Part shown: in pieces, positions 8,543 to 46,265 of the stretch
How positions within the stretch are numbered: the first letter of the stretch is position 1
Layout: every line of letters begins with the position of its first letter
NCBI GenBank assembly: GCA_001724265.1
Contig: MEDY01000230.1
Span: 1 to 47,267 of the forward strand
Reading direction: 5' to 3'
Length of the DNA stretch: 47,267 bases
Origin: Rhizaria sp. SCN 62-66
Lineage: Eukaryota
Notes under the pieces: generated by a model
Told to the model about the DNA's origin: nothing
The model's input: only the letters and a program-made list of their open reading frames with translations
The model's database searches: none
Position numbers and translations under genes: made by a program

Positions 8543-8573
<31 letters not shown>

Positions 8574-11088: not shown

Positions 11089-11152
<64 letters not shown>

Positions 11153-12605
11153 AGGGGAGCAAAGGACAAAGGAGAAGAGAATACAAAAATACACAATAGG
11201 AAGAGAGAGTTAGCAGATGAATGAAATAAATGACAGTTATTGAGTACAAACAACAGTAGTTGACTCAATAGTTGTTTAATCTGTGAGATAAAATCAATGT
11301 TTTGGTATCGTGATAGAGAAACATGGAGACGTGCCTGTGGCGAGGCTATTGATGGCCTTGCTGAACACCCCCGCCGTCTTAGTGCTGCCGAACCGGTCCC
11401 CCAGCGGGGCACCGGTACTCGTGACCCCCCTACGCGTTCCACCTGCTGCGGTGTCGCCGTAGAGGTCGATAACGGGCATCACGGGCCGCGACGGGTCGCC
11501 CGCCACCAGCGAGGCCAGGATGCCGGCCTCGTCAGCAGCCGCGGCAGCCCCGTCTTTCGCCATATCGTCAGTAGCATCGGCATCACTGTCGCTTTCCTCA
11601 TCCTCTTCTTCCTCCTCTTGCTCATCGTTGCTCTTGGCGGCGGAGGAGGAAGTTAGGCCGTGCTTGGCGGTAAGCGTCTCCCGATGGCTCTTGCGCTGCT
11701 TCATCACATAGCGCTTCACAGCCACTGTGTACTCGTCGCGGCCCTCGTCCACGGCGCCCGCGGCGGCGACCATCGCGGGCGTGATCTCGGCGAGCGTCTT
11801 GACGCCGTAGCGCTCAGCGATCCCCCGCCTTGTCACTATGGCGTGGCGCGTGTACTCCTCGGCCATCCGCTTGTTCTCCTCGTCAAAGAACAGCCGCGCA
11901 AGCCGCTCGTACTGCAGCGCGCGGTGCACGTCGCGCTTCAGCGCCGCGGGGGCGACAGCGGCCGTCGCGGCGGTCAGCTACGAGGAGGCCGGGTCCGTGG
12001 TCTCGGCGGCGGGGCGGTCGATGAGATCCAGCGTGAGCAGTTGCGACTCGTAGATAAGGCGCTCGGCGTTGCGAAAGCGGAGTGCTTCGTCAAACTTCTT
12101 GTGGAAGACGCAGATGGCCGAGAGGCGGCTCAGGCAGAAGGTGATTTGCTCGAGGTTGAGCACGTTGGTGTGCGTGTCGAGGATGTACAGGAAGTACTTG
12201 ATCGCCAGTTTCTGTGTAAAACGAATAAAAAACAAGTAGTTCAATATAATAGAAACCAATCCTATTTAACATATATCCCACGGTCATTTCATGAGTTGCG
12301 ACAAAAGTGTGTATATGCGGAATACGTACGTGCTTGCCGTCGCGCTCGAGCTCTGCAGCGCGGACGAGGTAGTCTTTGACCGTGAGTTTGCTTGCTGCAG
12401 CCGCGAAGTCGGCGTGGTCTGCAAAGAAATCCGCAGAGTCGGTGTCATCGCCCGTCGTGGCGGCGTTGGAGGACTGGGGCTGGCCGATGATGTTGCCGTC
12501 TGCGTCGGGGAGTCCGGCGAGCAGAAGCTGTTTCTCTTCCTCGGATAAAACTACCGCAGGCGCGCTAGGTGCGCTCGCAGGAGAGTCCTTGTTTAAACTA
12601 GCCAT
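10000..12605 (-). CDS. Consortin-like protein: TPR-like helical N-terminal domain and C-terminal transmembrane helix, 3 exons (12605-12330, 12211-11335, 11069-10000), one in-frame TAG (11978-11980)
   Basis: Phase-compatible introns (second is GC-AG). CLSRLSAICVFHKKFDEALRFRNAERLIYESQL resembles the consortin N-terminal helical repeat. Hydrophobic AVLMLLKAAAALLVVAIVVAATW near the C-terminus. TGA stop. Gene model is more certain than the family call. Confidence 0.6.
11071..11152. repeat. Imperfect (TG)n/(CA)n microsatellite inside an intron, abutting the acceptor
   Basis: Read directly; the minus-strand CA run ends in cacacag, the acceptor of exon 3. Confidence 0.95.
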
Positions 12606-13099
12606 ACTTTTCGTTCGTCTAGTTTTCGGAAATCAGTGCGAAAGGCCACGTGACGGATTATTTCACGAAGATATCAAAGGTGCTACATTTGCTCGTTCAA
12701 GCACCCTCGCTTGCTGCCAGACCGGCCGACCCGTTGGCTGAAGTAATCCTTTTAGTCTGCTGAGAGAGCAGGCGCGAAAAGTTTGAATTCGGGCGACTCT
12801 ATTACGGGTTATATCTCCTCAACCATCCATTTTCAGTTTGTGCATATTAAATATATGGTTTAAAAAAGGCGGGCCTATCGATTTTTATTATTAGCAGACA
12901 GTTATATTGTACCTAGCATTGTGCAGCCGTATTTTTCTAGTCCTTCCCGCTTACTCGTTTGTTCCTTCCCAACTTTCACTTCCGCGTTCTTGCCCCACCC
13001 AGCCTCAAGCTTTTTCGAACTTTAACCCCGCCTGATTCGTAGAAACCTTCGTTTTTAATATCCTCACGGTGGTGTCACCCGTTGATCTCACCCCCGCAG
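12606..13099. promoter_or_regulatory. Probable shared divergent promoter region
   Basis: About 490 bp AT-rich spacer between head-to-head starts at 12605 (-) and 13100 (+). Inferred from gene geometry only. Confidence 0.4.
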
Positions 13100-19000: not shown

Positions 19001-21043
19001 GACAGTCGTTTTGACGCCTTGATGCGGCCGACGCCGCAGGCCAGCCCCGCGACTGCTCGCGACGGCCCCGTTTTCACCGGCTCCCACGCATATACGCAGG
19101 CAAACGCACACGCGCAGTCGCAGGCGCAGTCTGCGGCGCTGTTGTGCCCACGGTCGCTCGGCATAGCTTCGCACGGGCCCGGCGGCTGCCCCGCGCTTCT
19201 GTCGTCGCACGCCGCTGGCTGCAACCACAACAACAGCAGCGACGACTCTGCGTCTGTGGACCGTGATTTGACGATGATCGCGGACAACGCTGTGGCCACC
19301 GCTGCGGCGACTGCGCCCTGTCTCATTCCGGGGCAGCAGTACGGCCAGCTCCACGGCAACAGCAACAGCAACTTCGGCAACAACGGCGGGTTCAAGGTTT
19401 CTCTTGCGCCCAACGCGGGCGCTGGCGGCTCGTTATTCAGCGATTCTAGCGTGTTCAGCGATGACTCTGCTACCTACACCCACGCTCACGGTAACTTCAA
19501 CGGCAACAATAACAACAACAACAACATGCACATGAATGCCACCACTCGCGCTGCCGCTGCTGCACTGCCGCAACAGCCCGTGGCGTGGACTGTGCCGACG
19601 TCGCCGTCTGAGGAGCTTTTCGCCCTCGCCACTGCGGGCTACCCCATCCCCGCTGTCACGGCCCCTCGCGCGCACTCCGCTGCCCATAGTCACCTCACAG
19701 CCCCTGCAGCCGCTGCTGTTGCTGCTGCTAACGGCCGCCTCGGTCAGAGCGTCCCCGCAGTCGCCCCGGCGTCGCGCTCCGCCTTTGTCTCCAACCCCCC
19801 CGCGACCGCGCCGTCCTCTCTAAGTACCCCTTTAGACGCCGCCCCAGTCCCGCCAATCACGCAGCACACGCTGCCCCCCGGCGCCGTGGCGCTGAACCGC
19901 ACCCGGCTGGCCCGCGCGCGCGCGGACGCCGATGCCGCGGCCGCCGCGGCCGAGCAGCGCCGCCAGCTCGCCCGGGCCGCGGCGGCGCGCGCGCAGGAGC
20001 AAGTCGGCGTCGACCTCGAGGTCGCGAGGCTCGCCGCCACCACTGCTGCCGCGAACAGCGCGAATACAAACACCTACAACAGCACGGTGCCGAGCGTGAG
20101 TGCGAGCGCAAACGCCGCTGTCGGCGCCCTCGAGGCCGAGGCCGCGCTCGCAGCCGCGCGCGCCCGCTTCCAGCAGCAGCATCAACAGCAGCAGCAGCAG
20201 CAGCAGCAGCCGCAGCCATGGCCACCGCGCCAGCAGCAGCCGCACCAGCTGCAGTATGGCGCTGGTGACGACAGTACTGATGACTCGCTGCCGTTGTCGC
20301 CTATTTTCAGCAACGCCTGCAACAACGCGGCTCTGCGCGCGACCGTGGCCGGTTGTAACAGCGCGAACGGTGCTTACAGCAGCTCTAGTTCTAGCTCTGC
20401 TAGCGCCAACGGCAACGTTTACTATGCACAGGCGCCCGCGTTCGCCTCGTTTGCCCCCCGGGTGCCCGCGCCGCCCCAGTGGTTCCCCGCGTCTACCTTT
20501 GCTAGCACTGCCGCTGATGATGTCCCCGCTAAGGCGAACGCTTACGTGAACAACACTGGTGCCAACGCGGGCAAGGGAGCGTGTCCTTACGGCGACCCCT
20601 CGATCTGGGCGATTTTCGCGCCCGCGCCTGCCGCCGCTGCCCCCGCTCCTTTTGCCGCCGCCGCCGCCGCCTCGGCTCCGGCCCCGTCGAAGCCGATCAC
20701 CGTGCCGTCGTTTGCCAACGCCGCGACGGACACGGCGGTGACGTACCCCGTCGCGGTCGCGCTGCCGCTCAAGCTGGGACTGGCGCTCACGCATACGCCC
20801 AACAACCGCGGGTGCTACGTCAAGGCGCTGGCCCCGCAGTCGGTCGCCGCGGCCGTGGGCGTGGCGGTGGGGGACCGGGTGGTTTACGTCAACAACAGGC
20901 TCACGCGCAGTTTGAGCGAGTTCTCCTGGGCCATGGACATGGCCGCCAAGGACGTCAGTGAAAACGGCGGCAACGTCGTAGCCGTGCAGTTCGCGCGCGG
21001 GGAGAACACCAGGCTCATACTCTACCTGCCCGTCGCGATCTGA
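13100..21043 (+). CDS. Giant single-ORF protein (about 2647 aa): N-terminal RhoGEF DH-like domain, long disordered middle, C-terminal PDZ-like domain
   Basis: FVSSERDYIELLGVL...LEPL and LRQPLARVPVYLALFKSL resemble DH conserved regions 1 and 3. LGLAL...GCYVKALAPQSVAAAVGVAVGDRVVYVN is PDZ-like. TGA stop. Confidence 0.75.
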   Translation: MSGRLSTDPLVASFVSSERDYIELLGVLVLECLEPLNRICDIPSPSTSDSHASLPVTEPPPARFARVVRQFTASLPTLAQHQLTLHSHLRLRTLTSASHLAAARALVTAFSPLLPTLCDAYSAFASELPLLLPALGQLVDAQDADFAVSNVLLTAVEARHRARYAALLSLPSPAAAGTVRSSSSGTNDDDESDTTPPYINNISSSSGSANHSASDTPVPFLVAALRQPLARVPVYLALFKSLRTRLAAAAAATTASTPTRSAAAEEDDGDETSLETYLAHTDVILASLEALAGYCSGFEDDIAAAIAQMPSASSQNTSSNTTHGHGHGHALSGSAASHCNNSINGQSAYSRSRGSVSNSQSDSGNESETGVGFRLPRRPLLASDSPDASASSSAGSSAAHSQSDANLPGHSDGDSDGDVSKAHTQALSRHNDASSRHGDIYKTSFIPDPVPAGAKSGSNTNSASDAGCSRRGSVAGGSTAGVASAATASAATEAGLGGLPLPTVTPDTDHYDDHNDNNYNEDDHGYNNGDYADAEEAGDHGNYGYDNEDDANDALQREREHAAEASNADVGAANYSSLNASASAKPSANTAASASRGHNRAHSINGPASQATAAVAVGGGDGVDAADGAYGGFNPPAPAQSSPSSRYASPVKGRSREVTPTKDADSNNNNNNSSSASAGAGAGRTVVAYDRGNHTVGYQSHGHYELGPNSNVSEFGNVYNDNGHDEAVAAAAEAAATDAEAAAAAALVYAKAAAASANAASASVGADVRVSTPLDGAVSGKATPVYRAPTPVAHTHAAAHGAVAGASQSATPVAPVASVAPHTPGSISGRASASANAAAALTAPGLSASRPQPQPQAHTTHSGSGHGAGAAGTYTGAADTYTAADRTYTSTHAHASAPVPATGDNAVVAPRRIVIGVYTNPTPVPAAPNAHNNNSSSSAVVNATQQHQQQQQPQNGHNIAAYRRSSLSSSTGTGSGPNSVSDAAAAAAAAPAPGSGPVSGTHTRSNSTLTGPNSAFADSQHTVPVGSHSRTNSTLSAAAAVPGAHHSRTNSTLTVSASPSAGSASTGSVSTATPATNRVYTTTTVVPSAAAAAANNAAANNAAAYTSTAATTVASNDRATPVYSAPSARATPVAAVAAPGPAFGPTARNSSNNSINNGDALATPASMHTSTAPTPTNYSSRYFAASSRAHDDAAATAYSGGVPSGGTGTGTGVTIGGGAAASEPRRFPPAPLSTTAHVGAGSGAGVGSGASSRRTSVATPRVPHIHIASSLSGAAAGSPRNASVSATSPNATTAALSAVAAAALASHRRASAPSSASTSFTEAAGDYSLPQPQAQGGTGADAVAAAAGEAAAAAGLGEDALVRLLMEAVKQQMATSDTSARGNNHNASMTGNEFADVDGVGNVSTVNVSALGDLNAQTNNGQQKQPNATNGSESLFGLNLPGGFTLPATLPAGLVDLVTALTGLAAVQQQSALLSNNNGSSNSNSADGGGRLSGAGAGAGLGAMPIQIAATIVNNNTANSHNAHTATTNASRTDSSTHTRSDNSSRTDSSSRTRTGRSSDSSTHSRVDNSTHTKAAGSHNNTNHGAERVEAAGNGAAVTDASAAADATGGARHAPRGNSSNNNAAGSASVVNPNIAAGALPAALAPQLGYDKAALATHLLSNIVNTHPALAQAHLPSLLAALAAFLNNKEGTPLVAEVKPPAGGKAPKVKLTVHGVPTGPHSGSVPVTVSRSGEAGDTAARAASAAAAATLSAAFGGPSHGASSVTTRIFPANYTAIGGVVGGDRGNDAYCTKRDKKDKKDRCSSAASVRDNCPYLASVTRVHNDASAHGHKGAKETRRDRERDSCERPADCAHAHGHGYGHGHHGHRCKGTCSGSNKDDAELNHYERSACLPSRFCAAAAHGHPAVPATATAAEVAAADAAAARASRQFTDALVSARARATATLNADHVSVYSNGNNNAAAAVQGRDSRFDALMRPTPQASPATARDGPVFTGSHAYTQANAHAQSQAQSAALLCPRSLGIASHGPGGCPALLSSHAAGCNHNNSSDDSASVDRDLTMIADNAVATAAATAPCLIPGQQYGQLHGNSNSNFGNNGGFKVSLAPNAGAGGSLFSDSSVFSDDSATYTHAHGNFNGNNNNNNNMHMNATTRAAAAALPQQPVAWTVPTSPSEELFALATAGYPIPAVTAPRAHSAAHSHLTAPAAAAVAAANGRLGQSVPAVAPASRSAFVSNPPATAPSSLSTPLDAAPVPPITQHTLPPGAVALNRTRLARARADADAAAAAAEQRRQLARAAAARAQEQVGVDLEVARLAATTAAANSANTNTYNSTVPSVSASANAAVGALEAEAALAAARARFQQQHQQQQQQQQQPQPWPPRQQQPHQLQYGAGDDSTDDSLPLSPIFSNACNNAALRATVAGCNSANGAYSSSSSSSASANGNVYYAQAPAFASFAPRVPAPPQWFPASTFASTAADDVPAKANAYVNNTGANAGKGACPYGDPSIWAIFAPAPAAAAPAPFAAAAAASAPAPSKPITVPSFANAATDTAVTYPVAVALPLKLGLALTHTPNNRGCYVKALAPQSVAAAVGVAVGDRVVYVNNRLTRSLSEFSWAMDMAAKDVSENGGNVVAVQFARGENTRLILYLPVAI

Positions 21044-29396: not shown

Positions 29397-30152
29397 TCCC
29401 GGCCGTTTGCGGAAGTATACACGCGTTTTAGACAATGTAATCGGATGTGAAAAACAAATGCCGACTCGATACCTTGCGTGGGTAGACTAACGTGTTTGAA
29501 ATACAGCGTTGTGACTCTTCGAAATGTCAAGAACAGCAAGTTCGCAAATCGCGATAGAAGTAGGAGAGAACATGTTAACATGGAGTACGTATATGAATAA
29601 ATACTCTATTTGCAGCGGAGTGCACGTTTATCTCCGCCATGACGCATTACACAATGGATATAAGGCACCTGAGTTGCTTACCAAAACCGAGTCGTCCCAG
29701 TTGAGTTTGCATTTCTCACAGTCAACAAGAAGAAAAAACAGTTTGTATTACTGCCATCCCAGACCCAGCCACTCGCACTCTGTATCACGGTTCCTAGTAA
29801 GACACATTATGATCGTCAAAGCGAATTTTGTACCTGCCCCATGTTTTTCTGCGCGTTACCACATATCTTTGTTCAATTATACTTCTGGAAATACCAAATT
29901 ACCCTATGGATTGCTGAACAGACTCTGGTTGGTTCACTCTGCCCGTGGTTCATCGCACAACAACAAAATCGAAGCTGGACTTACAAATTCATTTTTGCCA
30001 ATTGTTCTATGCAACGTTTCAAATTATTCATAGGTTGCTGGTACAACAACAGCTCACTTGGGTCGCCGTTGAAACACAGACCCAATCTTAATACTTTGAG
30101 ACGTGCTCGCGGCTACTTGGACTCCGTTCTCTCCGAGTTCTGAGGTATCGCA

Positions 30153-33100
30153 ATGAAGACCTTTTCTCCCCCCGTTAAGGGTGTTGCTTCTCCCTCTTCT
30201 CTTAATGCCACTGCAGCGGCCTCAATTCAATCTGACCGCTCGGGGTCGAGCAAACGCTCCAAGCTCGCCCGTCTGTCCCAAGTCCCCATCAACGAGCGCG
30301 TCTTTGGGCTCGGGCTCACCTACACCGGCGACGGCGACCCAGCGACGGGGATCCGCCACGGCCGCGGCGTCCTGACGCGTGCCGACGGCACGGTGCAGTA
30401 CGACGGCCCCTGGCGCGACGACAAACGCCACGGCCGCGGCATCACGCGCTTTAGCGACGGCAGCTGGTTCGAGTGCGAGTGGACCGACGACGTGCCAGCG
30501 GCACAGGGCGTATTGCAGACGCAGACGAATGTCCAGTTTACCGGCGACTGGGAGCTCGTGAACGGGGAGCCGCTGGCGCGCATGCTCGCGACCTCGCTCA
30601 GTCCCGCGCTGCAGCCGAGCGCGCGCGGCCGCGGCAGGGTGCGGTACGCCGACGGCGCGATCTACAACGGCGAGTGGCGGCACGGCCTGCGCAACGGTTC
30701 GGGCGACTACCTGGAGCTGGTGGCGCAGCGCGCAACTTACGGGCACTGGGTTGACGGCAGGCTGGACACGACGCGGTGGTTCACACGCGCCACAGCGTGT
30801 GGGCTGGTGACAATGCCCGACGCGTTTGCGATGCGTGGCGAGGCGCCGCGCACTGGCGACGAGTACGTGCAGAGCAAAGCGACGGATATTGACTCTGATG
30901 AGGTATTGCAGGGAATTCGGTTGCAATATGACATTGGTCAGATGACGCATCGTTTATTGTCGTACATTCTTGTCCTTTGTCAGTCTCTAAATCCGTACTC
31001 TACGAGTTCGCTGACAGCCGCGTTTGCCGCGGCGATCCTGTGGCACAGCCGCACCACACACAGCCTCGAACTGCTCAAGCGGTCCTGCGACGTCGGCGAC
31101 GAGGACTGCAAGGACGCATCGCGGCTTTCGTGCCCCTGCATCAACCTCGCGTGTCCCCACCAACGGATCGTGCGTTCTGTGTACACGGGCCAGCTTGACC
31201 GCGCTGGGCTGTTCCCGCGCGGCCGCGGCGTGTTCGAGTCGCGCTGGGGCGGCATGACGCTGTGCGGCGACGGGTGGGACGATCTCGACGTCAAGTCAGG
31301 CCGCGCGACGTACGCGGCAACGGGCGCCACCTTCACCGGGAGCTGGCGAGCCGGTAAGTGGGATAGTGGTGAGCTGCAGCGCAATGACGGGCCTTCGGTC
31401 GCGAACAAGGTATGGGACCTGGATGACCTTATCAGATTGAGCTTCACGCGTATAAATGCAGCCATGAGCTCACATGGACGCGGTAAGCTGACTCTTTATG
31501 ACGGCAGTGTTGTCGATGGAACTTGGGCGGACGGTAAGCTGCTCGATGGCTTCACTATAAAATCCCCGTTTGGTTTTATCCAAACCAAGTCTTCCACGAC
31601 AATGTTGTCGGCCCTTATGGGCTCTTTTTCAAAGCTTACGAAGGTGTCAAAGCCAAAGCTTCAGAGGGACGATTTTTATAGCTGTGTTACTGCTGGTGCC
31701 ACATCATGGCTTGACAGCTACACTTGCTCTGGTCCCAGGCCTCGCAGGGTTTGCCACAAGATGACGTTTCGAGGCGAATGTGCTGTTTCGAGCTCTGGCA
31801 ATGGATTATCCTCTATAGAGGCCCTTTCGGAAACCCACGAAAGCTCCTCTGCTTCCACGATCACGCTTGATGCGTCCGCGCTCACCCGTGACTGGCGGCT
31901 GAGTGTGGACGCTATGCGCGGGAGCGATGGCCCCAACACCAACATGTCAACCAAAACGATTCAGTACAGCGAGACGACGAAGCGGTGGGAGTCGATCTAT
32001 TCGGCGTACGAAGAGTTCGCCACGAAGTCTGCGGCTGCGCGCACTGTTGCGCGGACTCGGTCGTCATCGTCGACGTTCAAATGTACCTTTGTGGAGAAAC
32101 TCAACGCACCAAACAAACACATCAAACCGACGCCTGTCATTTCCATGCGCCCGAGTCTAGAACTCAGTGTTGTTGGTTGTTTTCCGATCCTCAGCTCGAC
32201 CCTTCGCCCTGAGCAGGCCATGACGCTGGTTATGAAGAACGGCAATCTCATTACCGGCGTGCTGTTTGATGTACAGCCGCGGCGAATGACACTGTTGCCG
32301 CATCCGGAGCAGCTGAGGATGCAGCTCGCCCACGGCCCCGTGTTCGTGGCTGACCCTCCCAGCGCGGCCGCCCGTGCAGCGTACCCGCGCGGCACGGCGC
32401 CGCTGCTTGGCAAGATGCTGTTTCCCGACGGCAGCAGCGAGACGCGCCGGTACGAGTGTTCATCTCCGGGCAGCACCGCACCGCCACTCTCCGACGAGTT
32501 TGTCACGCGCCACGGCTGGCGGCTGACTATCAGGCGCGAGCCTCAGTACCGCAGCGCAAATTGCCGCTGTACACCGTTTGCCCATTAGAAGAAGTTCAAC
32601 ATGTGCCAGCTGCTTGAGGCTGTCACGCCCAACGGCACTAAGTTCGATGGCTCTTTCCGCGCCATTTCACCGTGGATGCACACTGCGCCGACCGAGCTTG
32701 TGGGCCTCTTCACGCTGCCCAACGGCGTTACGATGCAGTTCGAGAGCGTGCACATCGACAAAAAGGCGCCGTTCGAGGGCGTCCAGTGCGTTGTGACCGT
32801 GCCGGGCCGCTCAGAGGCGCTCCGCGGGTGCTGGCGCGGCGACACATTCGTGGGCGCGGGCGCAGCGGGGGCAAAGAGCGTGCTACTATCGACCGACGAC
32901 GGACAGTACGAGGGAGAACGCAACGATGCCGGCGAGCGCCACGGCCAAGGCAAGTGTGTATACGTGACCGGTGCAGTGTACGAGGGCCAGTGGGAGCACG
33001 GGGTGCGCTGCGGCCAAGGAAAGTACACGAACTTCGTTGGTGATGCGACGTATACAGGCGCATTCAAGGACGACTGTGTTCACGGCCATGCCGTGCTGAC

Positions 33101-34652
33101 GCGTGTCAACGGCACAACGCTGACCGGAGAGTGGGCCGCTGGGGCATTCACGTCAGGCGTGTACATTGATCTTTTAAAAAACACAATCAATGTTGCCTAT
33201 TCCTCCGATTTTCCCCACGCAATGTTCTGCACAAAAGACGCGACGCTCGTGCTCGTCGACGAACAGCTTTACGCCTCCATCTACAAGGGCGGGGTCGTTG
33301 ACGGCCTTCCATGCATGCGAGGGACGCTCTGCGTCTACGCCGACTTGGACGCCCTTTGCCACGACACGGCTCCGCATTCGTCGCAGAGGATGGCACAAGT
33401 GCGGGAGCATCGATTCGCGACATACACCGGGGTTTGGTTGGCCGGGCAGTTCGTTGGTTTGGGCGAGATTAACATCCAAGACACGCAGTACGAGTCGCGC
33501 AACTCTGACGTGAATAATTTGCAAGTTGAGATCTCGTTCGGCGAGGGCAGCATTTACAACGGCAGCGCGCGTTTCACCGAGTTTAATCATATCGAGTTTC
33601 TCGGGGAGGGAGCTGTGGAACATTTCGAGTACGGGCGCGTGTGTGAAGGTCAATGGCGTGCCGATGACTACTCAACGATCTGGGGCCACAAGATGATCTG
33701 CAACGGGAGCGCAAACATCCTTGTTCAGGATAGTTTTCTGTACCCGGTTGAATCTTGTCACTTCGAACTGGTTGGCGAGAAAGTTTTAGCGACTGGTGCC
33801 CGCTCCACTGTCAAGATTGATGATGAGCATGGCACGGATTAGAATGGCATCACCTACGAAGGTTCGTTGATTGAGAGTTGTTTGCCTCACGGTTATGGTA
33901 TGAAAAAGACACCCGACAGCAAAATTCTGCAGACTGAGGGCTATTTCTGCAATAATGGCTCTCTGGGGTTCGGCGTGTCGAAAGCGGCCAACGGCGACGT
34001 GTACACCGGCCAGTTCAAGCGCGGGCGCCGCCACGGCTTCGGCCGCATGTGCTACGCCAACGGTGACTTACACAGCGGCTGGTGGATTGCCGACCGCCCC
34101 GGCGGTCTCGGCACGCTTGCCACCGAGCGCGGCGCGCTGTACGTCGGCTACTGGGACGGTTCCGAGCCTCTGGGCGACGGCTTGGTGCTGCACTTCGCAA
34201 ACCTCAAGCACAGCTTCGGTCCGGAGTGGCAGCAGGCAGCGAAGCAGGCGCTGGCCGACCGTGCGACGGAGCGGCGCTGGGGCCACCGCCGCGGCATCTC
34301 CCCGCGCAAGGCGACGTGGTTAGGCCCGCGTGACGAGCGAAACAAGCCCTGCGGCGCGGGCGTGATGACGCGCTTCGACGGCGTTGTGGTGCAGGGCACG
34401 GCGCGCGGCGGGCGATTGACTGGGACCGGTGTGATGCACTACCCGGACGGGACCGCGTACTCGGTGACCTTCGACCATCAAGGTCGTGTGGTGGAGGCGC
34501 GGCCCTGTGTCAGCGCTGCGCGGCCGCACGACGGGGCCGCCGTGAAGAAGCGGGAGCTGTCGGCGCGGCTCGCGGGGCTGCTGCAGCCCGTCGACACGGA
34601 CGAAAAGGAAGAACAACGTTTAGATGAAGACTTCTTTACGTCTTTGGTTTAA
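30153..34652 (+). CDS. MORN-repeat protein, 1499 aa as one intronless ORF with two in-frame TAGs (32586-32588, 33840-33842)
   Basis: ORFs 30153-32588, 32601-33842 and 33867-34652 are in one frame and separated only by TAG. MORN repeats (YxGxWxxGxRHGxG) occur in all three parts. TAA stop. Confidence 0.85.
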
Positions 34653-35156
34653 GATCGATCAATGCATTTTTGTCAAGAAATCGACTTGTTACTTAGTGAA
34701 GTCTGCGGGTTTCGGTCAGATTTCGAATAGATAAACCGAAACGAACTGTAAATAAAACTGACTTTTCACGGACGTATTTTGCCATGAGATTTTCTTCGAC
34801 TATTTCTTTGAGTTGTACAGTTTATGTATTCTCATCGTTTTTCCAGGTTATAATCAGGCTAACACATGCATGGCAGGAGGGGTTTGAGTCTCACATACAT
34901 GTTATGGTCACCAAGTAAGTTGTGATTCAGATTCATACATAATAAATCCAGGGACACTGTGACACCATCATCGATGATTGCATTCGAACTAGAGCTGATG
35001 TTACATTATGACAGTCGCAAAACGCATGCAATGCACACACGTACTCATGCTTGTACATGTACTCATGCGTGTCGTCCACACTCTATAGTGAAATAGCGAC
35101 CGACGCTGGCGACACCCACTCGAACATTCCTTCGTCAGCACCCATGTGCGCGGCAC

Positions 35157-37322
35157 TTAATAAACGACGACGCGGCGCACGCTTGGCGGCGGGCTCCGGC
35201 TGCGGCCGCGGCTGCCGTCTGCCACGGGCGCGACAGTCAGTTCGGGCTTCTCACGCCTAGCAGCGATGCCGGCGGCGGCGGCGGGAGCGATGACCACAGG
35301 CTTGTCGGTCCGGACCAAGGTGGCCTCGGGCTTCTCTGTGATCACAGGGCCAGTAGCGGCGGCGGCGGGGGGCTTGTCGCCGGGGGCGCGCGGGGCAACA
35401 ATCACCGGCTTGTCGGTGCGCACGACCGGCCTCTCAGTAGCGGGGGCAGCGGCGCTGTCGCTGGCACGCGCGCGCGCACGTGCACTCTAACGCGCACGGG
35501 AAGCGAGCTCAGGCGCAGGCGCAGGCGTAGCAGCGGTGTACTCAAGCTCACGGTCACGGTCGCGATCCGGTGAGGTTGCGCGGAGCAGGTTGCGGCGCCC
35601 GCGCTCGGCCGCGCTCGTCACGGCGCTGTCGGCGGCGGCGTCGGGGCTGTCCTTGAGAAGCTTCTCCCGCATCTTCTGCACTTCGCCACGGATCTTGCGG
35701 ATCTCATCACTGAACTTGGGGAAGTTCTGCTTGAGCCACGCGCTCTCAGCCGTTTCCGCACCGCCGCGATGGATCAGGCGGACCGCGGACCAGAGCATCT
35801 GGCGCGGGGTGTATTCCAGCATGCGGTCGCCGTCCCAGTCGCGGAAGTTCAGCCGCCCCGCAGGCTGGTAGGTGTCGAACAGTGCGAAGAGCTTGTCCGT
35901 CGAGCCGCGGTCCCTGGCGCCCTTCCAGAACGACCAGAGCCGCGCGAGACTCTTGGCGAGGAGCGAGTCGGTGTCCTGGCGCAGAGACTTGACCAGCTCG
36001 GGGTAGTCCTTGTCACTGCGCAGCGCGGCCATGGCGGAGGCGAAGTCGGCGTTGAACTTTCGCCACTCGGGTGAGTCGAGCGCGATCGCGGTCGACGTCA
36101 TCACGAAGCGGCGCGAAACTACGGCGTTGTTGTTGTCGTTATTGGCGCGGTTGCGGTTGTTGTTCATGTTGTTGTAGTAGAAGTAACGCTTAAAGAGATC
36201 ATCGAGGTCGAGGTCATCATCGTCATCGTCATCGCGGTCATCACGGCGGCCACGGTGCTTGAGGTCGTCATCATCGTCGTCGTCATCGTCGTCAAACGTG
36301 GTCATACGATTGTAGCCACTGGCGACCGGCCGCGGCCGGCGCGAAGGCCGCCCCAGTCGCTCAGAGCTGGGGCCGTACTCGCCCGCGCGCGAACCGCGGA
36401 CGGGGGCGACGGGGCGCGCTGTAGGATTCAGGCCCTCGCCGGCGCCGGCCGGAGCGGTGGGGGCCCCGTACCCACTGTCGTCGTTGTAAAGCGTGTACAT
36501 CGACAGCCCCTCAGGCTCACGCTCACGGTCACTCAGGTCGCGGCTGCGGCTACGGCTGCGGGAGCGGGACAGCGAGCGCGAACGCGAGCGCGACCGGTCG
36601 CCCTCGCGGCTGAGACTGCGCTCGCGGGAGAGCTCGCGGGCGACGTCACCACGGTTGCGGCTAAGGCTGCGGCCCTCGGAGATGGCGCTCATGATCGGCG
36701 CGGGCGTGCGGTCGCGCGACCGAGAGGGCGACGTGGCGCGCGCGAGACGGCGGAGACGGATCTTCTCGAGGATGCGCGCCTCGCGCGGGGTGAGGTAGGC
36801 CTCGATCATCTCGCCCATGTTGCTCGCGCGCGACAGAGGCTTGGACTCGTCGGCTGCAGTCTCGATCGCTGACGGTGACGTGCGGGCGGAGGCGGGGGAC
36901 GGCGGGTTCAGGTAGGACGAGAGAGAGCCGGCGTTGTCGCGCTCGAGAGATGGCTCAAGGGCGCGCCGGAAGCGGTTGCGGAACGAGGCCGCGGGCGGTG
37001 CCGCGGTGTCATCCGCCGCTGTGAGAAAAGAAGAAAACAGGCAGGGAAGCGAAACAGACACGATGAGAGCACGGAACGATGATTTCAAGTATCCGGGAGT
37101 GAAGTAGGTTGGTCATACAGTACACAGCACAGCGTAGATATGAAGGTAACAACACTTTTTAATGTTGCTTGCTCAAGATCAACTTCCAGAAACATGATGA
37201 ACTGAGAGGGATGAATGTGACAAGTGGGACTCATGAAAGTGAAGATACGTACCAGTCGCTACGTAGGAACTTAAAACGCAAAGAAGTACAATCAGTACCC
37301 CCATGGTTAATAGAAACCTCAT
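35157..37322 (-). CDS. Orphan secreted protein with RS-rich, acidic and TDKPV-type repeats, about 643 aa, 2 exons (37322-37253, 37018-35157), one in-frame TAG (35487-35489)
   Basis: Exon 1 is signal peptide MRFLLTMGVLIVLLCVLSSYVAT. Phase-1 gtacgt...cacag intron. The frame stays open 109 codons past the TAG with the same GC-rich codon style until TAA. Confidence 0.7.
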
Positions 37323-38029
37323 GTGTGATACAGGTCTAGTGTCACAAGATCACGATGTTCAAGCAATATCAAATTATGAGCAAAGCAAGATCATGGCCGC
37401 GGGACTGACAAGATGCTGCGCAACTTGAAAAAAAGTGCCTTCATTGTCAGTCACGAAAAGCAAGTGCATTCGTCTCAATGCGCGCATGGTAAGGGCTTGT
37501 ACACACGCGCTCTCAAAATGTCCGATTTTATTTCACACATCAAACTTGTTTTGAGTTCGTGTATGCCTGACAGTACCTTTGTTCAAGTTCTACAAACTTG
37601 CAACTGCTGACAAAACAGGAGATATCGTATGTTGATAAATAGACACAACTTAGTTATCAGGTAAATAAAGGTATCACTACCCATGTTATCACACGTTATA
37701 TGGATATCTGATACCGCTGTGATGCAGTGCAGTTGTACGCTGTTTTAGACAAATTCAAGTCCAGCTGCAGTCGGCAGACGGGACGCCGATTTGGGTCGGC
37801 GACAACGAGAGGTGACGAAGGTCCTCCTAAAAAGCCTCTGCAGCTCGTCTTAAATCCGTTACTACAATATATCTTTGAAATATGATCCAGATCTTACACG
37901 CAAATAATACGTCATAATAATGAAAGCCTATTATCTAACTCCTACCGAGCCCCTGTTATCCTTGCCATCTTAGCCCTTTCGCCCCTCGACTCATCACACC
38001 ACGCTTGGCTTGCGTTGCCTCTCTGTGAG

Positions 38030-41000
38030 ATGGACGACTCAATGCAGGAGCAGATGCTCCGCCACCTAAACATTACTGCGCAAGCTGCCACATCTCCGCC
38101 GTCCGTTTCTGTCTACAACACCCAGAAACACCCGCAAGCCCAGTCTGTCGCAGCCTCTGCCGACTCCAGCACAACTCCCACTGGCCCTATCTCGACAGCG
38201 TTCCCTCCTCCCGTCTCGACAGCCTTCCCGCCCCCAACTGCACCCGCGTTGTCCCCGCTCGCCGTCTCGACCGCGTTCCCGCCCCCCATTGCGGCGGCCG
38301 CGCCGCCGCAGCCGGTCTCGACCGCGTTCCCCCCGCCCGTCTCGGCGCCCCGCGCCGCGACCGCCGCCGCGCTGCGCGCGCTCGCGTGGTCGCCAGTCGA
38401 GCGCGACGACATCGCCGTGCTCACGCGCAGCGAGGTCCGCGTTTATCGCGCCGCCGCGCCTCCGCAGCAGCACTCGGCGAGCGCAGCGCAGCCCGACTGC
38501 ATGGTCTCCGGCCGCCGCGGTGACACGCCGTTCGATCCCCTCGGCATCTTCTCCGCATCGGCCTCCGCCGCCGCCTCGGGCGACTTCGACAGCTTCTACC
38601 CCGGCGCGGGCGCGGGCGCTGGCCCGCCCGGACTGGCGCTGCTGGCGACGGTGCCGCTGCCAGCGCTTGACGCCTCCCAGGCGCACAGGGCAGTGGCGTG
38701 GGGACCTTCGTACCGCCTCACGCCCGGCGGCGCCGCCGCGGCCACCTACGCCGTCAACAACAACAGCTGCGGCGGCGGCCACAGTGGTGGCGCGGGCGTG
38801 GGCCGGTCGGCGAGTGCGAGCGCGAGTGCGGGTGCCTCGAGCGTCGCCGCTCTGACCGCGCCCGCGACTGCGTTCGACAACTCGAGCCACATCGCGCTCG
38901 GCCTCTCGAGCGGTCGCATCCTCGTCGCGAACCTCGGCGCGCCGCCCCTCACGCCCGCGTACACCCACGCCAACGCCTCCTCCTCCGCCGCCGCCTTTGC
39001 CGCCTCCGCCGCCGCCGCCGGTGCGACGGGCTACGACGTGTCGCATCCAGCAGGCGGGGCTGCGGCGTTAAACTTCTCTTTCGCGCTGGCGCCGCGGCAC
39101 GCGCGGCCCGTCCAGTGCCTCGCCCTCTCGCCACACCCGCTGGCACCGTCGCCCGCCGCGCTCCAGCAGCACCAGCAGCAGCTCCAGTAGCAGCAGCAGG
39201 CGGGTGGCTACTATGGGAGCGGCTGCGAGGCGCCGGCGCTGTCGCCGTCGCCGCTGCTCGCGGTGGGCTACGACTACATGCGCGGGGACCACAGCGTGCT
39301 TATCTGGGACCTGCTTGCGGCCTCGGACAACACTGCCGCCGCCCGCAATGGCGCGTGTTATCCCCATAACAGTAATACACATAGCTCGAGCTTCGTGACT
39401 GGCAGCAGCCACGGGCAGTACGGATCTCCGTATCCCCCCTATCCGCCCGTCTTGGCTGGCCTGCAGCAGCAGCCCTCGTTTGCGGCGCACCTCGGAAACG
39501 CGGCCACGGTGCCGCTGTATCGCGGCGAACCCATCACGCGGCTGCTGGCCTCGGACTCTGCCGCCTCGCTGGCGTGGCTGCCGCTGTCGCCCGGTACGTG
39601 GCCCTTGCACTGACTTCACTCGCAACAATCTGTTATGTTGATCTATAATTCATTGTGACAATCTATCGACATCTTTATTATGTTCATTTTCTCTCACGTC
39701 TGCTTTAATCCCATCATCTTTCGTCACATTGCGTTGTTGTTTATCGAAGGCTGTATTGCGACTGGCACCAAGTTCAAGTGGTTGCGTTTCTTTGATCTGC
39801 GCAGCAACGCCATGACATCTGCAAACGCTGCCAACACGAACGTCAACGCGAATTTCGGTAGTTTTAGCTACACAAACAAAAATGCGCCAAACTCGACGTT
39901 CGGCGGCTACAACACCAGCAGCACCGGTTTGAGCTCCAACGGCCACGCCATCGGCTACCGCTCGCGCCCCGGCGCCAGCTGCTTCCCGAGCGGCGGCGCC
40001 GGCGGCTTAGCTTCCGCCCCGGTGACCGTGGGCTGCATCCCGAGCATCACGGTGACACCGCGGCCCATCACGTCGATCGTGGCCCACAACAAGGTCACCA
40101 GCGGCATCGCGCCGGAGCCCCACAACGGACACTATCTGGCCACACACAGCGACGATTTGATCGTGAAGGTCTGGGATTTCCGGTTTTTGCGCAACAGTTC
40201 TGCCCCCGTTGCTACTATTGATGTCAGCCTCAAGCAGCACTCGATCAACAACGACTTTAACAGCGCATCCTCTGCTGCTGCTAATGCTGCTTCGATCGCT
40301 GACGGTGACGGCGCCAGCAGCGGCAGCGGCCTCGGTCAGCTCGTCTCGGTTGGCTGGTGCGCTCAGCGCCAAGGCGTCCTCGTCACCGTGACCACCACCA
40401 ACGACGCCGGCTCCGGCGGCGGCGCCAGCGCGGGCGGCAGCGGCGGCGGCGGAGGCGTCGTGAGCATGTGGGATGTTCAGACCGCGATTAACGCTTCCTC
40501 AACCGCGATCACTGTGGCCGCGGCGAACAACAGCGCAGCGCCCAGCTCCGCAGCCGCCGGCTCCGTCTCCATTGACGCCGCCTCCGCTGCCGCTTCCGCT
40601 GCAGCCACAGCGTCGGCTGCTGCGGAGAGCGTCGTGGCGATCGCCGAGGGCCGCCGGCACTACACCAGCGACAGCGTCACCGCGGCTGCGCCGCACCCGG
40701 AGCAGGCGGCGCGCGTCGCCATTGCCCTCACCGCCCCGCCCCAGCACGCCGCCGTCGCTGGTGCGGGCGCAGGCGCGGGCTCTCTCAGCGGCGCTGCGTC
40801 GGCGTCGTACGCCAGCACGCCGGGCGGCGCGAGCCTCACGACCGCGTCCTGGGCGCTGAGGGACGTCACCCTGGTCGGCCCGCTGCCGATTGCGCTCGCG
40901 CCACCGCTCGCGCAGCTCACCGCCACCGCCGCAGCCGCTGCCGCAGCCACGTCCGCGCGCGGCAAGCTTGCTGTGGCAGGCGCCGCGGCCGCGGGTGCCG

Positions 41001-44000
41001 GCGGCGGCAAGGGCAATAACGGCAGCAACACGACCGGTGTGGTGTCGCTTGTTGGCGCGCTGCGTCGGGGCCGGCGCGCTCTGAACCGCATAGCGAGCAA
41101 CCTCAACGCACGCACACGCGCGCACGCCCGCGCCGCTGCCGCCGCCGCCGCCGCCGCCACGGACTCCTTCTCGTATCACAACCACCACCCGCACTACTAC
41201 CACAACGCGGGGGCCCACAACGGCGGCGGCGGCGCGGGCAACGCGCCCGTCGTGTCCGCGGCTGCCTTCGCGGCCGCGGCGGCTTCGTTCCCCTCCCCCG
41301 CCGCCGCCGCGGCCGCCGTCGTCTCAGGGCTCGACGCGCTGGCCGCCGCGCTGGCGGGCGAGCGGGCGGCGGCGCGCGCTGCGGCGGTGGAGGCGGCCGC
41401 CGCCGAGGCCGAAGCCGAGGCTCGCGCCCGCGCCGCCGCCGCCTCAATCCCCAGCACCGCGGGCTCTAGCGTCAGCGGCTCTGGCGGCGCCAACAGCGGC
41501 GCGCTGGTCGCTTCGCCGCAGCCGCTGCCGCTGCCATTGCCCGCCACCGCCAGCCCGGCAACTGGCGGCGGCGGCGGCGCTGCCCACAGCGGCGGCTTTC
41601 ACGGCGGCGACGACAGCGATGACAGCGACGATGAGGAGGAGCAGCGGCAGGTCCTCGCTGACGCGGCGGACGTGGACACTCTGCTGACGTCGTGTATGCT
41701 GCCGAGCGTTTCGTTCGGCTCGGCCAACACGCTCGCGCTCGATACCACGCTCACCAGCAGCAACGGGAGCTGCAACAACAACCACAACAACAGTAACGCC
41801 ATCAGCACGGCCACTGGCGCCGCGATGTCGTCCCTCTTCTCTCCTCAGCCCGACGCGGGCTCTGGCGCTGACGGCGCAAGCACCGGCGGCAAGCCCGTAT
41901 GCGCGAGCTTCATCGTGACCGTCGCCGCGTCTCTGTCGCTGTGCTTCTCGTCCGCCGCGCTACTGCCAGTGCGTGCGCTCCAGGGCTACGCGATTGCGCC
42001 GCGGCCCAACCTGCTGCTCTTCGACGCCCTGCTCTCTGCGCTCGGCCGCATCGAGGCCGAGCTGTTCGCGTTTAAGGCCGCGGCGGGCGCGCTCGACGCC
42101 GCGCTATGCGCTGCTGCCGCCTCCGACTCGGCCTCGGCGTCCGGTGCCGCCCACGGCCACCTGCACGGCGGCCACGACTTTGGTCACATGCACGGGACGC
42201 ACGGGATGCACGGTCACGGGGGCTACTCGGCGATGCAGTACAACAGCAACAGCAGCAGCTCGGCGATGTCCGCCGCCGTGGCCGCAGCAGTCGCCGCCGC
42301 CGCGGCCGCCGCCGCTGCCGCTGCCACCGCCAGCTCCAGCGGCAGCAGCAACAACAGCGAGGCCGCAGCCGCCGCAGCCGCCGCCGCTGCAGCCGCCGCG
42401 GCCGCGGCCGCCGCCCTCTCGGGCGCGGGCTCCGGTTCGGCCCCGCTGTCGCCGCACGCGCTGCTGCGCACAGCAGTTTCGCTGCGCGCCGCAGTGGCCG
42501 CTCTGCCCGCGCGCCTGGTCCCGCCTGCCGCCGTCGACGCCGTGCGCGGCACTCGATCCGCGTGGCGCTTCCTCACCCAGGCCAGCGAGTTCGCGGAGCA
42601 GGACCACCGCGCGCTCACGCAGACCCAGTCGGGGGCGACTGTGGGCAGCGGAGTGACCGTGGGCAGTGGCGGCCCCGGGGAAGGGCCTGTGCTGGTGTTG
42701 CCGCCATCTCTGACGACGGGCATGCTGCGTCAGTCGGCCGCCCAATGGGGGCTCATTCCCGCCGCGAACAGCTCCGCCACCGCCAACACCAACACTGCAT
42801 CCGGGCTGGCGAGTAGTACCACTGCCAGTGGGGCCACCGGGGGCGCCGTGCTTGCTGCGTTTGCCGCGCCGCCACCGCCGCCGCCGTCGCCGCGCGCGCT
42901 GTTCCAGCGCCACGCAGTGGGCCTGTACCCGCTGCTGCGCGTACTGCTGCCCCGCAGGGCTCGGTAGGTTTCTTACCATAGTCGACTCTCAATTGACACA
43001 TATGTCTTTTATAACATGATGGATTGTTTATGTTAAGGTGAAATTGAATGATTTTTGTTGAAGCGCACGTTTTGTGTTTTTGGCTTACACGTTTTGTTTT
43101 ATACTCTCTATTCGCCCTTTTCTTAGCGCTCTCGGCGTCCGCGCCTCAGTGCCTCTGACCCCTCTGTTCCCCCTGGGCGCCGCCGCAGCCTCCGCTCGCT
43201 CCGCCGCAGCCTCAACCACCACCTCTGGCTTCGGTTCTGCTGCGGCAACTCAGAGCCGTTACAGCAGCACCAGCGGCCGCACGTCCCTTCTGTCCCTGTT
43301 CCCCGCGTACGTCCACCCCTTACGGTCGGTGGCGCTCAACATGGTCACCACATACGGCGCCGGGTTGGCGGACCCGGCGCTCAGCGTTGTGCTGCTCACC
43401 CCTCTCCACAACGACAGCGCGGCCACCGGTCTAAGTACCCTCAGCGGCGCAGGTCTAAGCACCTCCTCTGGCGGCGTGTCTGCGAGTGAAGGCAAGGCGC
43501 TGGTGCTGTCCAACTGGTCCGCTTCGGTGCGCCGGCTGGTTGTCGCGCTCATTGCAGTGGGCCGCAGGGACGAAGCCTGCGCCGCCGCGGTCTTCGGGCT
43601 CGACTTGCCGCTGGCGATCAAGGTACTCATGGGGCGCACGGTCACCGACACCAGCGGCGACGGCGAGGGCGAAGGCGCCGGCGGCAGTGCGGATGAGGAC
43701 GAGGATGACACGGCGGTGGCGATGTTGCTGCAACAGCAACAGCAGCAGCAACAGCAGCAAGGGCGTGGCACGTACTCGACGAGTGCGTACCCGTACCCTC
43801 TCGCCCACAGTCACTCTGCTGTTCCACCTGCGCCACACAGCCACACTGCTCATGCGCACGGTCATTTTGACCAGCAAGGCCACTTAGTCGGCACCAACGC
43901 GAGTCCGTTGACCCCCTTACACCACCCCGCCGCGACGGGCGCTTACTTACACGGCCCCTCAGGCGCAGGCGCTCACAGTCACTTCCATTATCACTCGAGC

Positions 44001-46265
44001 GTCAATAGCTTCGGCGGCAGCGCCGGCAGCAACAACGCGAGCAGTGCTTTTGCCAACAGTGTGCTGCCGATGTCTCCCTATCTCGCAGGCAGCCCTGCGC
44101 ACGGTCAGTACCGCAACCCTGCTGCTGCTGCTGCTGCTGCTGCGGCAAGTAGTGCTACTGCGCTCGCTCAGTCCCCTTACTCTTACTCGCAGCCGGTGCC
44201 AGCGAGCGGGTACTTCAGCGGCTCTCTTCCCACCGACGGTACTTACACGCAACCCCCTTACATGGCCAACGCCAGCGCAAGCGGCTCCGCTGCGAACGCC
44301 GCTGCGAGCGGCGGCTTTGGCGCTGGGGCGGGTAACGAGACGGTGTTTTTGTCCCTCGCCCTCGCCTCGCTGGCAGCGAAGCTCCCCTTCATCGCGTGTC
44401 TGCGCGAGGACGCCGCCGCCGCCGCCGCCGCCGCAACCGCCGCAGCCGCAGCCGCCGCCGCTGCGGCTGCTGCGGGCAGTCCCACCTCAGGCGCGGACGT
44501 TGCCGCCGCCACGGCAGCCGCTACGGCCGCCGCGACCGCCGCCGACACCGCTGCGTCGACCGAGGCCGCCGCGACCGCCGCCTGGCACGAAGCAAGCGCA
44601 CCGCTGCGGCACGCTATCTCGTCGCTGCCGTCGCCCTACCTGCGCGCCGCGTTTCGCTTTCTCGCATACGCACCCACGTCCACTTACAATGTAAGTGGCG
44701 GGAGCCGTGGCAACGGGAATGTTTCGCTGTCGGTCGCGCACTTGCAGGAGACGCTGGCAGACACGGCCCTGCCGCTGCAGTTCCGCGTCGCGCTCGCGCT
44801 GCGTTACCTGCCGGACCGCGAGCTGGTGCGCTATCTGCGCGCCGAGACGGCCGCGGTGGTGCGCGCGGGCAGGCTGGACGGACTATTGCTCACGGGGCTG
44901 GTCCACACGGGCGGGAACAACGGCGGCAAGAAGCTGAAGGGTGCTGCTGCTGTTGGCAACGATCCCGCTCGCTCTGCTAAGCGCGACAACAGCAACGAGC
45001 GCAAGAGCGAAACCGACGCGACTGAGGACGAGGACGACGACTACGACGACGACGACGACGACTGTCCTGGCGATGGCATCAGCACGGGCCCGGCTGCAAA
45101 TGCGTTTCTCAGCAGCCTAACGCCGCCCTCGCCGCAATGGGCGCTGTCCGGCATCGGCAACGCGGCTGCTAACGCCAGTCAGAGCTGTGGTGGAAAGGCT
45201 GCAACGCCGCCGATGGCGATTGCACTGCTGCAGAACTACTTAGACCGCACCTCGGACATTCAGACCGCCGCGTTGCTGGGTACTTACACACTCGCGCTCC
45301 ACAACACCAACAACAGCAAGCCCAAGCCGCTGATCGCCGGCCCTGACGCACCCGCCAGCGCCACTGCGGCTGCGTCTGCCGCGGCGGCTGCGACTGCCGC
45401 GCTGGCTCCGGCCCGGTGGCTCGCTCAATACGCGAGCCTTCTGCAGCAGTGCAAGCTGTGGGGCGTCCGCGCGCGGCTCGACACTGCGCGCAACCTCCTT
45501 CTCACGCGCCTCCGTCCGCCCGTGAGCGCCGGCAATGGCAGCCGCAGCTATAGCGGCGGCGGCGGTGCGGCCGCGGGCAGTTTCTCAGGGCCGGTCACCG
45601 CCTCTGCAGTCATTGCCGCCCTTCCGGCCCCGGCCGGCACAGCGCGCGGCAGCCCTCTTGCCGCCGGCGGTCTCAGCGCCCCGCTACCGACCGGCGTCTG
45701 TGTCACCGGTCTTGCTGCGATTACGGCCGGCGCGGAGGCCAAGGCCCTGACGCGCTCGCTCCGCGTAGAAGCCTGGCCCATCTGCCCGCACTGTGCGTAC
45801 CCAATGTACGGGGCGGCGCGCCGCGCGACCGACAGCAACTGCAGCGGCTCAGGTAGCAACAGCAACTCAGGCAGCGCGGGCGCAGGCGCAAGCGGCGAGT
45901 CGAAGCAGGGCGCGGGCTCGAGCGGAGGCGGCGGCGGCGGCGGCAGTGTCGGGGGCGTGTGCGTCAAGTGTCGCCGCGGACTGCCTAAGTGCGCAATCTG
46001 TCTCGTCGGCGTCGACGTCACCAGCAGCAGCACTAACAGCAGCAGCAGCAGCAGCAGCGGCGGCGGCAGCAGTAGCAGCAGCGGCGGCAACGGGCTGAGG
46101 CCGGATAGGTGGCTTGTGTGGTGCGTCAAGTGCAAGCATGGCGGACACGCGGGGCACATTGACGCCTGGTTCAGGGCGCATAACGAGTGCCCTGTCGCAG
46201 AGTGCACGTGCCAGTGCAACTCTGCGGTGCCCGGCGCGGCGGCTCTGCTGGCAAAGCAGCAGTAA
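38030..46265 (+). CDS. MIOS: GATOR2 complex subunit MIOS/Sea4 (WD40 + C-terminal zinc ribbon/RING), about 2638 aa, 3 exons (38030-39593, 39750-42963, 43127-46265), one in-frame TAG (39188-39190)
   Basis: RHARPVQCLALSP, LAVGYDYMRGDHSVLIWDL, LRFFDLR, VKVWDFR, PYLRAAFRFL, LDGLLLTGL, LLQNYLDRTSDIQTA and C-terminal CVKCRRGLPKCAICL...WLVWCVKCKHGGHAGHIDAWF...CPVAECTCQC are MIOS-type motifs. Introns are phase-compatible. TAA stop. Confidence 0.92.

Follow-up and report, generated by a model that had tools for sequence, protein, structure and literature searches.

A rare in-frame TAG codon in a MIOS-like gene is probably translated in a GC-rich eukaryote from bioreactor and wastewater metagenomes

The contig MEDY01000230.1, analysed here over its full length of 47,267 nucleotides and called the window in what follows, carries a gene for an orthologue of MIOS/Sea4, a subunit of GATOR2/SEACAT, in which a TAG triplet stands in frame long before the end of the protein. 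In this study, we asked whether this triplet ends translation or is read as an amino acid and, if so, as which one. The window is nuclear DNA of a GC-rich eukaryote with spliceosomal introns that is found in metagenome runs from bioreactors and wastewater. We conclude that TAG is very probably translated in this organism, because TAGs stand in frame within its genes, no open reading frame (ORF) ends with TAG, the coding score is even on both sides of the TAGs, an orthologue is conserved across them and the strain polymorphism in MIOS is mostly synonymous. UAG would then be a rare sense codon and not a terminator, with translation ending at UAA in most cases or at UGA, so that the TAG in the MIOS-like gene would be translated to give a full-length protein of 2638 residues. 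By analogy with the published codes in which UAG only is reassigned, a transfer RNA (tRNA) with the anticodon CUA might pair with UAG and not with UAA, and eRF1 may perhaps no longer recognise UAG. As to the organism, its release factor, the tRNA and the amino acid, these are inferred.

The triplet lies at 39188-39190 on the forward strand, in the frame of a long ORF that opens at 37886. The sequence of 39160-39199 reads CTC CAG CAG CAC CAG CAG CAG CTC CAG TAG CAG CAG CAG and is followed by GCG. The elements around it are as follows.

39095..39133, forward strand: RHARPVQCLALSP, which matches positions ~103-115 of a profile of MIOS N-termini
39134..39253, forward strand: lineage-specific insertion of 40 codons, HPLAPSPAALQQHQQQLQ[TAG]QQQAGGYYGSGCEAPALSPSP, placed by the profile alignment
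39188..39190, forward strand: TAG in frame at codon 387 of the MIOS-like gene, surrounded by a run of CAG, CTC and CAC codons
39254..39313, forward strand: LLAVGYDYMRGDHSVLIWDL, which matches the profile stretch 'lLAaGldKvRnDhslliWDv' (independent expect value (E) 2.9e-25, domain 3)

The profile derives from a HMMER search of 1.84 billion representatives with exon 3 of the gene, which gave 862 matches at E <= 0.001. A length of 780 residues or more is reached by 78 of the 150 best of these 862 matches; of these full-length homologues, 34 also match the N-terminal 1000 residues of the window protein. The first 450 residues of 31 of the 34 went into the profile; the remaining three (P0040, P0042 and P0125) were left out because their matches start near their own N-termini, which suggests that they are truncated. 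The profile matches the window protein in colinear order with a whole-sequence E of 2.4e-43, its positions 6-42 and 46-115 falling before the TAG and 108-215 and 212-286 after it. Residues 264-369 of the protein correspond to positions 46-115 and residues 400-548 to positions 108-215, and since the two flanks of the insertion thus map to contiguous profile positions, they are contiguous in MIOS homologues. Where exactly the insertion begins and ends can be fixed only to within about 30 residues, because the profile stretch 'CnavawnP' fits RPVQCLALSP upstream of the insertion as well as its near-repeat CEAPALSPS downstream of it; the TAG lies between both. The segment LLAVGYDYMRGDHSVLIWDL also pairs with residues 123-145 of the MIOS chain 9dx0_A, which is a weak pairwise match (E of 2 for 9dx0_A and 0.0036 for 9dx2_H). 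The G+C content of the insertion is 73.5% (over 39133-39249), compared with 38.5% and 33.7% for the two introns of the gene.

The MIOS/Sea4 orthologue as a whole occupies 38030-46265 on the forward strand and comprises three exons with 2638 codons, ending in TAA. Its splice sites were deduced from sequence and frame logic only.

38030..39593, forward strand: exon 1, its start taken as the first ATG of the ORF
39594..39749, forward strand: intron 1, GTACGT...AG, 156 nucleotides, 38.5% G+C, with in-frame TGA stops
39750..42963, forward strand: exon 2, the remaining WD40 domain and long low-complexity runs
42964..43126, forward strand: intron 2, GTAGGT...AG, 163 nucleotides, 33.7% G+C
43127..46265, forward strand: exon 3, which encodes pieces of the alpha-solenoid and the zinc ribbon/RING of the C-terminus and closes with TAA

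Intron 2 resolves the change of frame between the ORFs 39659-43036 and 43062-46265. We rejected a further TAG, at 42965-42967, as a sense codon, as it is part of the GTAGGT 5' splice site of this intron; this TAG closes the standard-code ORF 39659-42967, and a census of stops that is blind to introns would miscount it.

The order of WD40 domain, alpha-solenoid and zinc ribbon/RING is colinear with that of MIOS/Sea4 homologues. At the C-terminus, the Pfam family zinc_ribbon_16 is matched with an E of 5.2e-17 (62.7 bits; cutoff 27), and exon 3 matches human MIOS (7uhy_A) with an E of 4.4e-23 and yeast Sea4 (8adl_G) with an E of 5.8e-20. The Pfam family MIOS_a-sol reaches 22.3 bits in exon 3, which is below its cutoff of 27, and in the solenoid short colinear matches were obtained to residues 626-677, 678-695 and 714-747 of human MIOS. 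A word-indexed homologue search with exon 3 gave no match, nor did a PDB search with the residues encoded by 38360-39166, before the TAG. While the domain architecture is that of MIOS/Sea4, which as a GATOR2/SEACAT subunit assembles with WDR24, WDR59, SEH1L and SEC13, the conserved blocks are in pairwise comparison only ~30% identical to those of homologues, and the protein is with its 2638 residues about three times longer than the human MIOS chains that were matched (875 and 894 residues). The excess length consists of poly-Ala, poly-Asn, His-rich, poly-Gln and Gly/Ser-rich insertions. The first 165 residues also hold six 'STAFPPP' repeats.

These results agree with most of what had been deduced from the letters of the window. 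The original prediction identified the gene as MIOS, which the profile, the zinc ribbon and the matches to structure chains all support, and it placed the TAG in a CAG run with coordinates and flanking peptides that proved exact. Its proposal that the two flanks run on from each other within the N-terminal WD40 domain is upheld by the 31-sequence profile, and the conservation that it assumed for the C-terminal zinc domain is evident from the matches to zinc_ribbon_16, 7uhy_A and 8adl_G. It had also estimated that termination at the TAG would cost about 85% of a protein with conserved downstream parts, and we obtain 85.3% (codon 387 of 2638). The view that this TAG is a sense codon has gained in strength, as four further in-frame TAGs were found in the window and no TAG terminators.

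Altogether five in-frame TAGs occur in four genes, at 39188, 32586 and 33840 on the forward strand and at 35489 and 11980 on the reverse strand. Two of them belong to one gene with MORN repeats: when TAG is taken as sense, three adjacent ORFs at 30144-34652 fuse to a single gene of 1502 codons that ends in TAA.

30153-34652, forward strand: MORN-repeat gene with two in-frame TAGs
32586..32588, forward strand: first TAG of the MORN-repeat gene, aligned to a Met in the orthologue P0187
33840..33842, forward strand: second TAG of the MORN-repeat gene, in a gap of the P0187 alignment
35487..35489, reverse strand: TAG in an Arg/Ser/Asp-rich gene (35157-37112, reverse strand), with a further 109 codons up to the TAA
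11978..11980, reverse strand: TAG in a gene at ~11294-12265 (reverse strand), with the coding score kept on both sides

A search with the MORN protein yielded P0177, a protein of 814 residues that is 44% identical, and the cluster of P0177 holds the full-length P0187, which has 1484 residues and no internal stop and is encoded on contigs of up to 205,739 nucleotides. The identity of P0187 to the window protein is 46.9% before the first TAG, 55.6% between the two TAGs and 49.8% after the second one, and both proteins share the same end point, which is the TAA of the window. Peptides across the TAGs would be CTPFAH[X]K (after an Arg) for the MORN protein and another containing GTD[X]NGITYEGSLIESCLPHGYGMK.

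For the two reverse-strand genes no relatives were detected. A codon-usage score was computed with 6796 codons from other segments as its training set. In the gene at 35-37 kb it amounts to 0.59 bits/codon before the TAG and 0.53 after it, and in the gene at 11-12 kb to 0.63 and 0.61. The MIOS gene scores 0.50 bits/codon both before and after its TAG, and the MORN gene 0.28 before its first TAG, 0.47 between the TAGs and 0.46 after the second, while the other frames score -0.37 to -0.97 bits/codon. Over 10,077 codons in 17 coding segments neither TAA nor TGA occurs in frame; the corresponding count for TAG is zero by construction, because the segments were cut at TAGs. TAG is used about 5 times per 10,000 codons (~0.05%). 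The 13 ORF ends on this one contig comprise nine TAA, four TGA and no TAG, and among the eight secure ones seven are TAA and one is TGA, the next letter being G in 7/8. The letters that follow the five in-frame TAGs are C, A, A, A and C, and there is no readthrough motif common to them. The dominance of TAA is conspicuous in itself given a G+C content at third codon positions near 0.8.

Several other TAGs were considered and not counted. The ORF 8201-9502 on the reverse strand (433 codons), with two TAGs near Gln runs, was rejected since its coding score is ~0 in all frames; it illustrates that treating TAG as sense inflates spurious ORFs. The ORF 3189-4211 (also 3267-4136) has a non-coding score and was likewise rejected as a gene, together with its TAGs, and three TAGs upstream of a giant PDZ gene are located beyond the standard-code ORF, where the sequence is rich in AT. 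Among the genes, the ORF 13043-21043 has 2666 codons, is intronless and shows a weak C-terminal PDZ match; its TGA is the sole secure TGA terminator. At ~10900-11290 on the reverse strand, between two coding ORFs of one gene, a microsatellite of the (CA)n type, with the translation HTHTHTHT, is found in AT-rich surroundings, and this region is probably an intron.

The TAGs and the ORFs that they delimit are reproducible across assemblies. The 386-residue product from the first ATG to the TAG at 39188 has an exact copy on four contigs of ENA/Logan assemblies and the 111-residue product after this TAG is present on six, the longest contig having 68,264 nucleotides; overall, the products of TAG-bounded ORFs recur on 4-7 such contigs. 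Since the exact products on both sides recur across contigs, the TAG at 39188 is not an accident of assembly. The stretch 30100-40000 was found in runs from several bioreactor and wastewater studies. A contig of run X3, from another study, equals 38091-39208 with no differences and extends 18 letters past the TAG, the rule for calling a site bridged being 31 letters. Among the run pieces listed, none has other letters at 39188-39190, the nearest listed piece of run X4 starting at 39227. The TAG at 32586 is bridged unchanged by contigs of two other runs and studies (X3 and X4), and that at 33840 is bridged by a contig of run X4, for which three of four differences are listed, none of these three being at the TAG. 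Run X4 represents a diverged strain. Its eight listed differences in MIOS are all downstream of the TAG and six of the eight are synonymous, while the synonymous share expected is 27-31% (P = 0.006-0.013). A contig from a polyA RNA library (X10) covers 35305-35535 with no differences and has the TAG at 35487-35489 unchanged, and a polyA RNA library contig has an in-frame deletion of three nucleotides at 39417; DNA carry-over is possible in both cases.

In the MORN gene, the X4 differences are mostly non-synonymous (7/9), despite 50% identity to the full-length orthologue throughout. Six further X4 differences fall within 43 nucleotides (35030-35072) of the spacer that separates the MORN gene from the gene at 35-37 kb, which is far denser than in the flanking coding sequence. 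A JGI metagenome scan with a segment of the MORN gene and a GTDB contig scan both gave no match. With the MORN alignment, the JGI scan returned only a 1-kb contig (L001), which matches residues 7-113, far from the TAGs; its positions 709-1029 encode the N-terminus of a MORN relative that is 58% identical over these residues, and therefore relatives of the window organism occur in other metagenomes.

Several observations weigh against the conclusion that TAG is translated. The sample consists of five TAGs, all from one contig, and the runs that agree on them are not fully independent, because they may share campaigns or strains. Among the RNA contigs listed, none spans 39188 and neither intron junction of MIOS is seen. 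A scan of the window for tRNA genes gave none, and an Rfam scan of the window also found nothing. The differences of the X4 strain in the MORN gene, two synonymous and seven non-synonymous, match neutrality, and a recent decay of this gene would be possible on the polymorphism alone. Lastly, in the codon usage of the window 62% of new stops arising by mutation would be TAG; five TAGs out of five therefore have a P of ~0.09-0.10 under a model of nonsense mutations, and this count is not decisive alone.

These last two points are what would be expected if the TAGs were recent nonsense mutations and MIOS, MORN and the two other genes were pseudogenes or null alleles in this strain. We consider this very unlikely, since it needs four of the ~12 genes on one contig to have been hit, and this without a single frameshift, TAA or TGA. 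In addition, the TAG at 32586 is kept both in run X3, which shows no difference from the window, and in the X4 strain, which has diverged. The polymorphism in MIOS indicates purifying selection downstream of the TAG, P0187 is as conserved after the TAGs as before, and the coding score of the window genes is undiminished. Slightly less improbable, though still clearly so, is the idea that TAG is ambiguous, that is, normally a stop, but one that near-cognate tRNAs or a context signal allow the ribosome to pass at some sites, with a lower yield of full-length protein. The great rarity of TAG in coding sequence would suit such a mechanism, and context could matter, because the next letter is C, A, A, A and C at the in-frame TAGs and G at 7/8 secure stops. 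However, not one of the 13 ORF ends is a TAG, no motif is common to the five sites, and two readthrough events in one gene of 1500 codons would multiply the losses. Published UAG-only codes are, moreover, equally sparing of UAG and equally UAA-preferring (UAG making up ~8% of Gln codons in Iotanema; PMC5304391).

It might also be that the TAG at 39188 is altered or removed before translation, by a small in-frame intron or by U-to-C RNA editing, or that it reflects a sequencing error, and we regard this as the least probable of the explanations considered. There are 56 in-frame pairs of GT/GC...AG that span the TAG, for example 33 nucleotides from GTAGCA at 39187 to the AG at 39219, one candidate starts with GTAG like the 5' site of intron 2, and 39188 is uncovered among the RNA contigs listed. 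Yet the insertion has 73.5% G+C and a coding score, while the recognisable introns have 156-163 nucleotides and 34-39% G+C; three of the other four TAGs cannot begin an intron, because they are preceded by T and not by G. The retention of the TAG at 35487-35489 in the contig of the polyA RNA library, where DNA carry-over is possible, and the recurrence of the same ORF boundaries on 4-7 contigs speak in the same direction. We therefore retain translation of TAG as the best explanation.

Which amino acid is inserted is a separate question, and on this point our results depart from the original prediction. It regarded the TAG at 39188 as the best evidence that UAG encodes Gln, a claim which is not supported, as the site lies in a low-complexity insertion that would tolerate almost any residue; because this insertion is lineage-specific and unconstrained, 39188 cannot decide the amino acid. 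Nor does a change from CAG to TAG point to Gln, since TAG arises by mutation most often in this way, no matter what it encodes. By contrast, Leu, which had been mentioned as a remote caveat, turns out to deserve more weight than that. Of the TAGs in the window, only the one at 32586 has an orthologue aligned across it with conserved residues on both sides (CRCTPFAH[TAG]KKFNMC in the window and CRCTPAAH[M]KDYNAC in P0187), and there it faces Met, for which the BLOSUM62 score is +2 with Leu and 0 with Gln. This makes Leu slightly favoured at this site and a serious rival to Gln. None of the TAGs faces Gln in an orthologue (0 of 1 alignable, with one in a gap and three without orthologue), in a sample that is far too small to reject Gln.

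Provided that TAG is sense, a Leu codon might be decoded by a tRNA-Leu(CUA) that arose from tRNA-Leu(CAA), the route proposed for the sainouroid rhizarian exLh. In addition to the Met in P0187, it is in line with this possibility that TTG is one step away from both ATG and TAG, that termination is dominated by UAA also in exLh and its relative Guttulinopsis (PMC5304391), and, as a weak argument, that the best-scoring named match of MIOS exon 3 is the rhizarian Amorphochlora. This match does not establish a rhizarian affinity, because the MIOS N-terminus has its named matches in amoebozoans, fungi and Diphylleia. Against Leu it can be said that the Met is a single site in an alignment with 50% overall identity, that the TAG in MIOS stands among CAG codons, to which it would be synonymous if read as Gln, and that exLh has 384 in-frame UAGs in 71 genes compared with ~5 per 10,000 codons here (PMC5304391). 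Because the published UAG-only codes go both ways and a single site faces Met, we divide our estimate between the two: Gln falls a little short of an even chance, Leu is a tentative possibility and any other residue is improbable.

Nuclear code changes that separate UAG from UAA are rare, and the one in which UAG only changes from stop to Gln formally corresponds to NCBI table 15. A paper of 2017 describes two cases outside the ciliates in which UAG only is reassigned and UAA dominates, exLh, where UAG encodes Leu, and Iotanema, where it encodes Gln (PMC5304391). A paper of 2024 adds phyllopharyngean ciliates, of which one lineage reads UAG as Leu and two others read it as Gln, UAA being preferred for termination (PMC11687900). 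For PMC5304391, a phylogeny-informed likelihood method was used to decode UAG. By analogy, these precedents match the pattern of the window, in which TAG appears as sense and TAA as the main stop. With the Gln codes of Iotanema spirale, Hartmannula sinica and Trochilia petrani the window shares a low frequency of UAG, UAA as main terminator and UGA as a stop, and one of its TAGs lies in a CAG run. However, UAG is rarer in the window, with 5 in ~10,000 codons, than in Iotanema, where it makes up ~8% of Gln codons (PMC5304391). With the Leu codes of exLh and of an uncultivated phyllopharyngean lineage it shares the reassignment of UAG only and the dominance of UAA as a stop, and the one TAG aligned to an orthologue, facing Met, is compatible with Leu. 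In contrast to the window, exLh uses UAG often, with its 384 cases in 71 genes (PMC5304391).

The hosts of the Gln codes are a fornicate and ciliates, which the window host does not resemble in genome style, with 60% G+C, a multi-gene contig of 47 kb and GTAxGT introns. A GC-rich contig with several genes and such introns is, we take it, not like ciliate macronuclear DNA. Within the window GC-rich exons (68-72%) alternate with AT-richer spacers, the whole being ~60% G+C. The best named matches scatter over a chlorarachniophyte, an ichthyosporean, fungi, amoebozoans, Diphylleia and an oomycete: MIOS exon 3 gives, besides Amorphochlora, Creolimax, Geosiphon and Onygenales, the MIOS N-terminus gives Ceratiomyxa, Balamuthia, Gaertneriomyces, Spinellus and Diphylleia, and the MORN protein gives Phytophthora. 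Because of this scatter, we do not claim a taxonomic placement from the best matches. A literature search found no paper on UAG reassignment in a eukaryote from wastewater or activated sludge, with subscription journals lying outside the search.

We see an even balance for and against the fuller proposition that a non-ciliate, GC-rich eukaryote of wastewater and bioreactors, not recognised before, uses a UAG-only code at ~0.05% of its codons, with ends dominated by UAA and with a residue that is perhaps Leu. If true, this would add a further non-ciliate UAG-only code to those of exLh and Iotanema (PMC5304391), and it would show in nature how the capture of a stop codon looks at an early stage, the very low usage of TAG indicating a reassignment that is early or weakly used. 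Should the lineage be an independent one, it would be more evidence that UAG only has been captured repeatedly where UAA is preferred. For the organism itself there would be a practical consequence: as standard gene callers have split its genes at the TAGs and the fragments are present in public collections as individual proteins, its proteins would be systematically truncated in databases.

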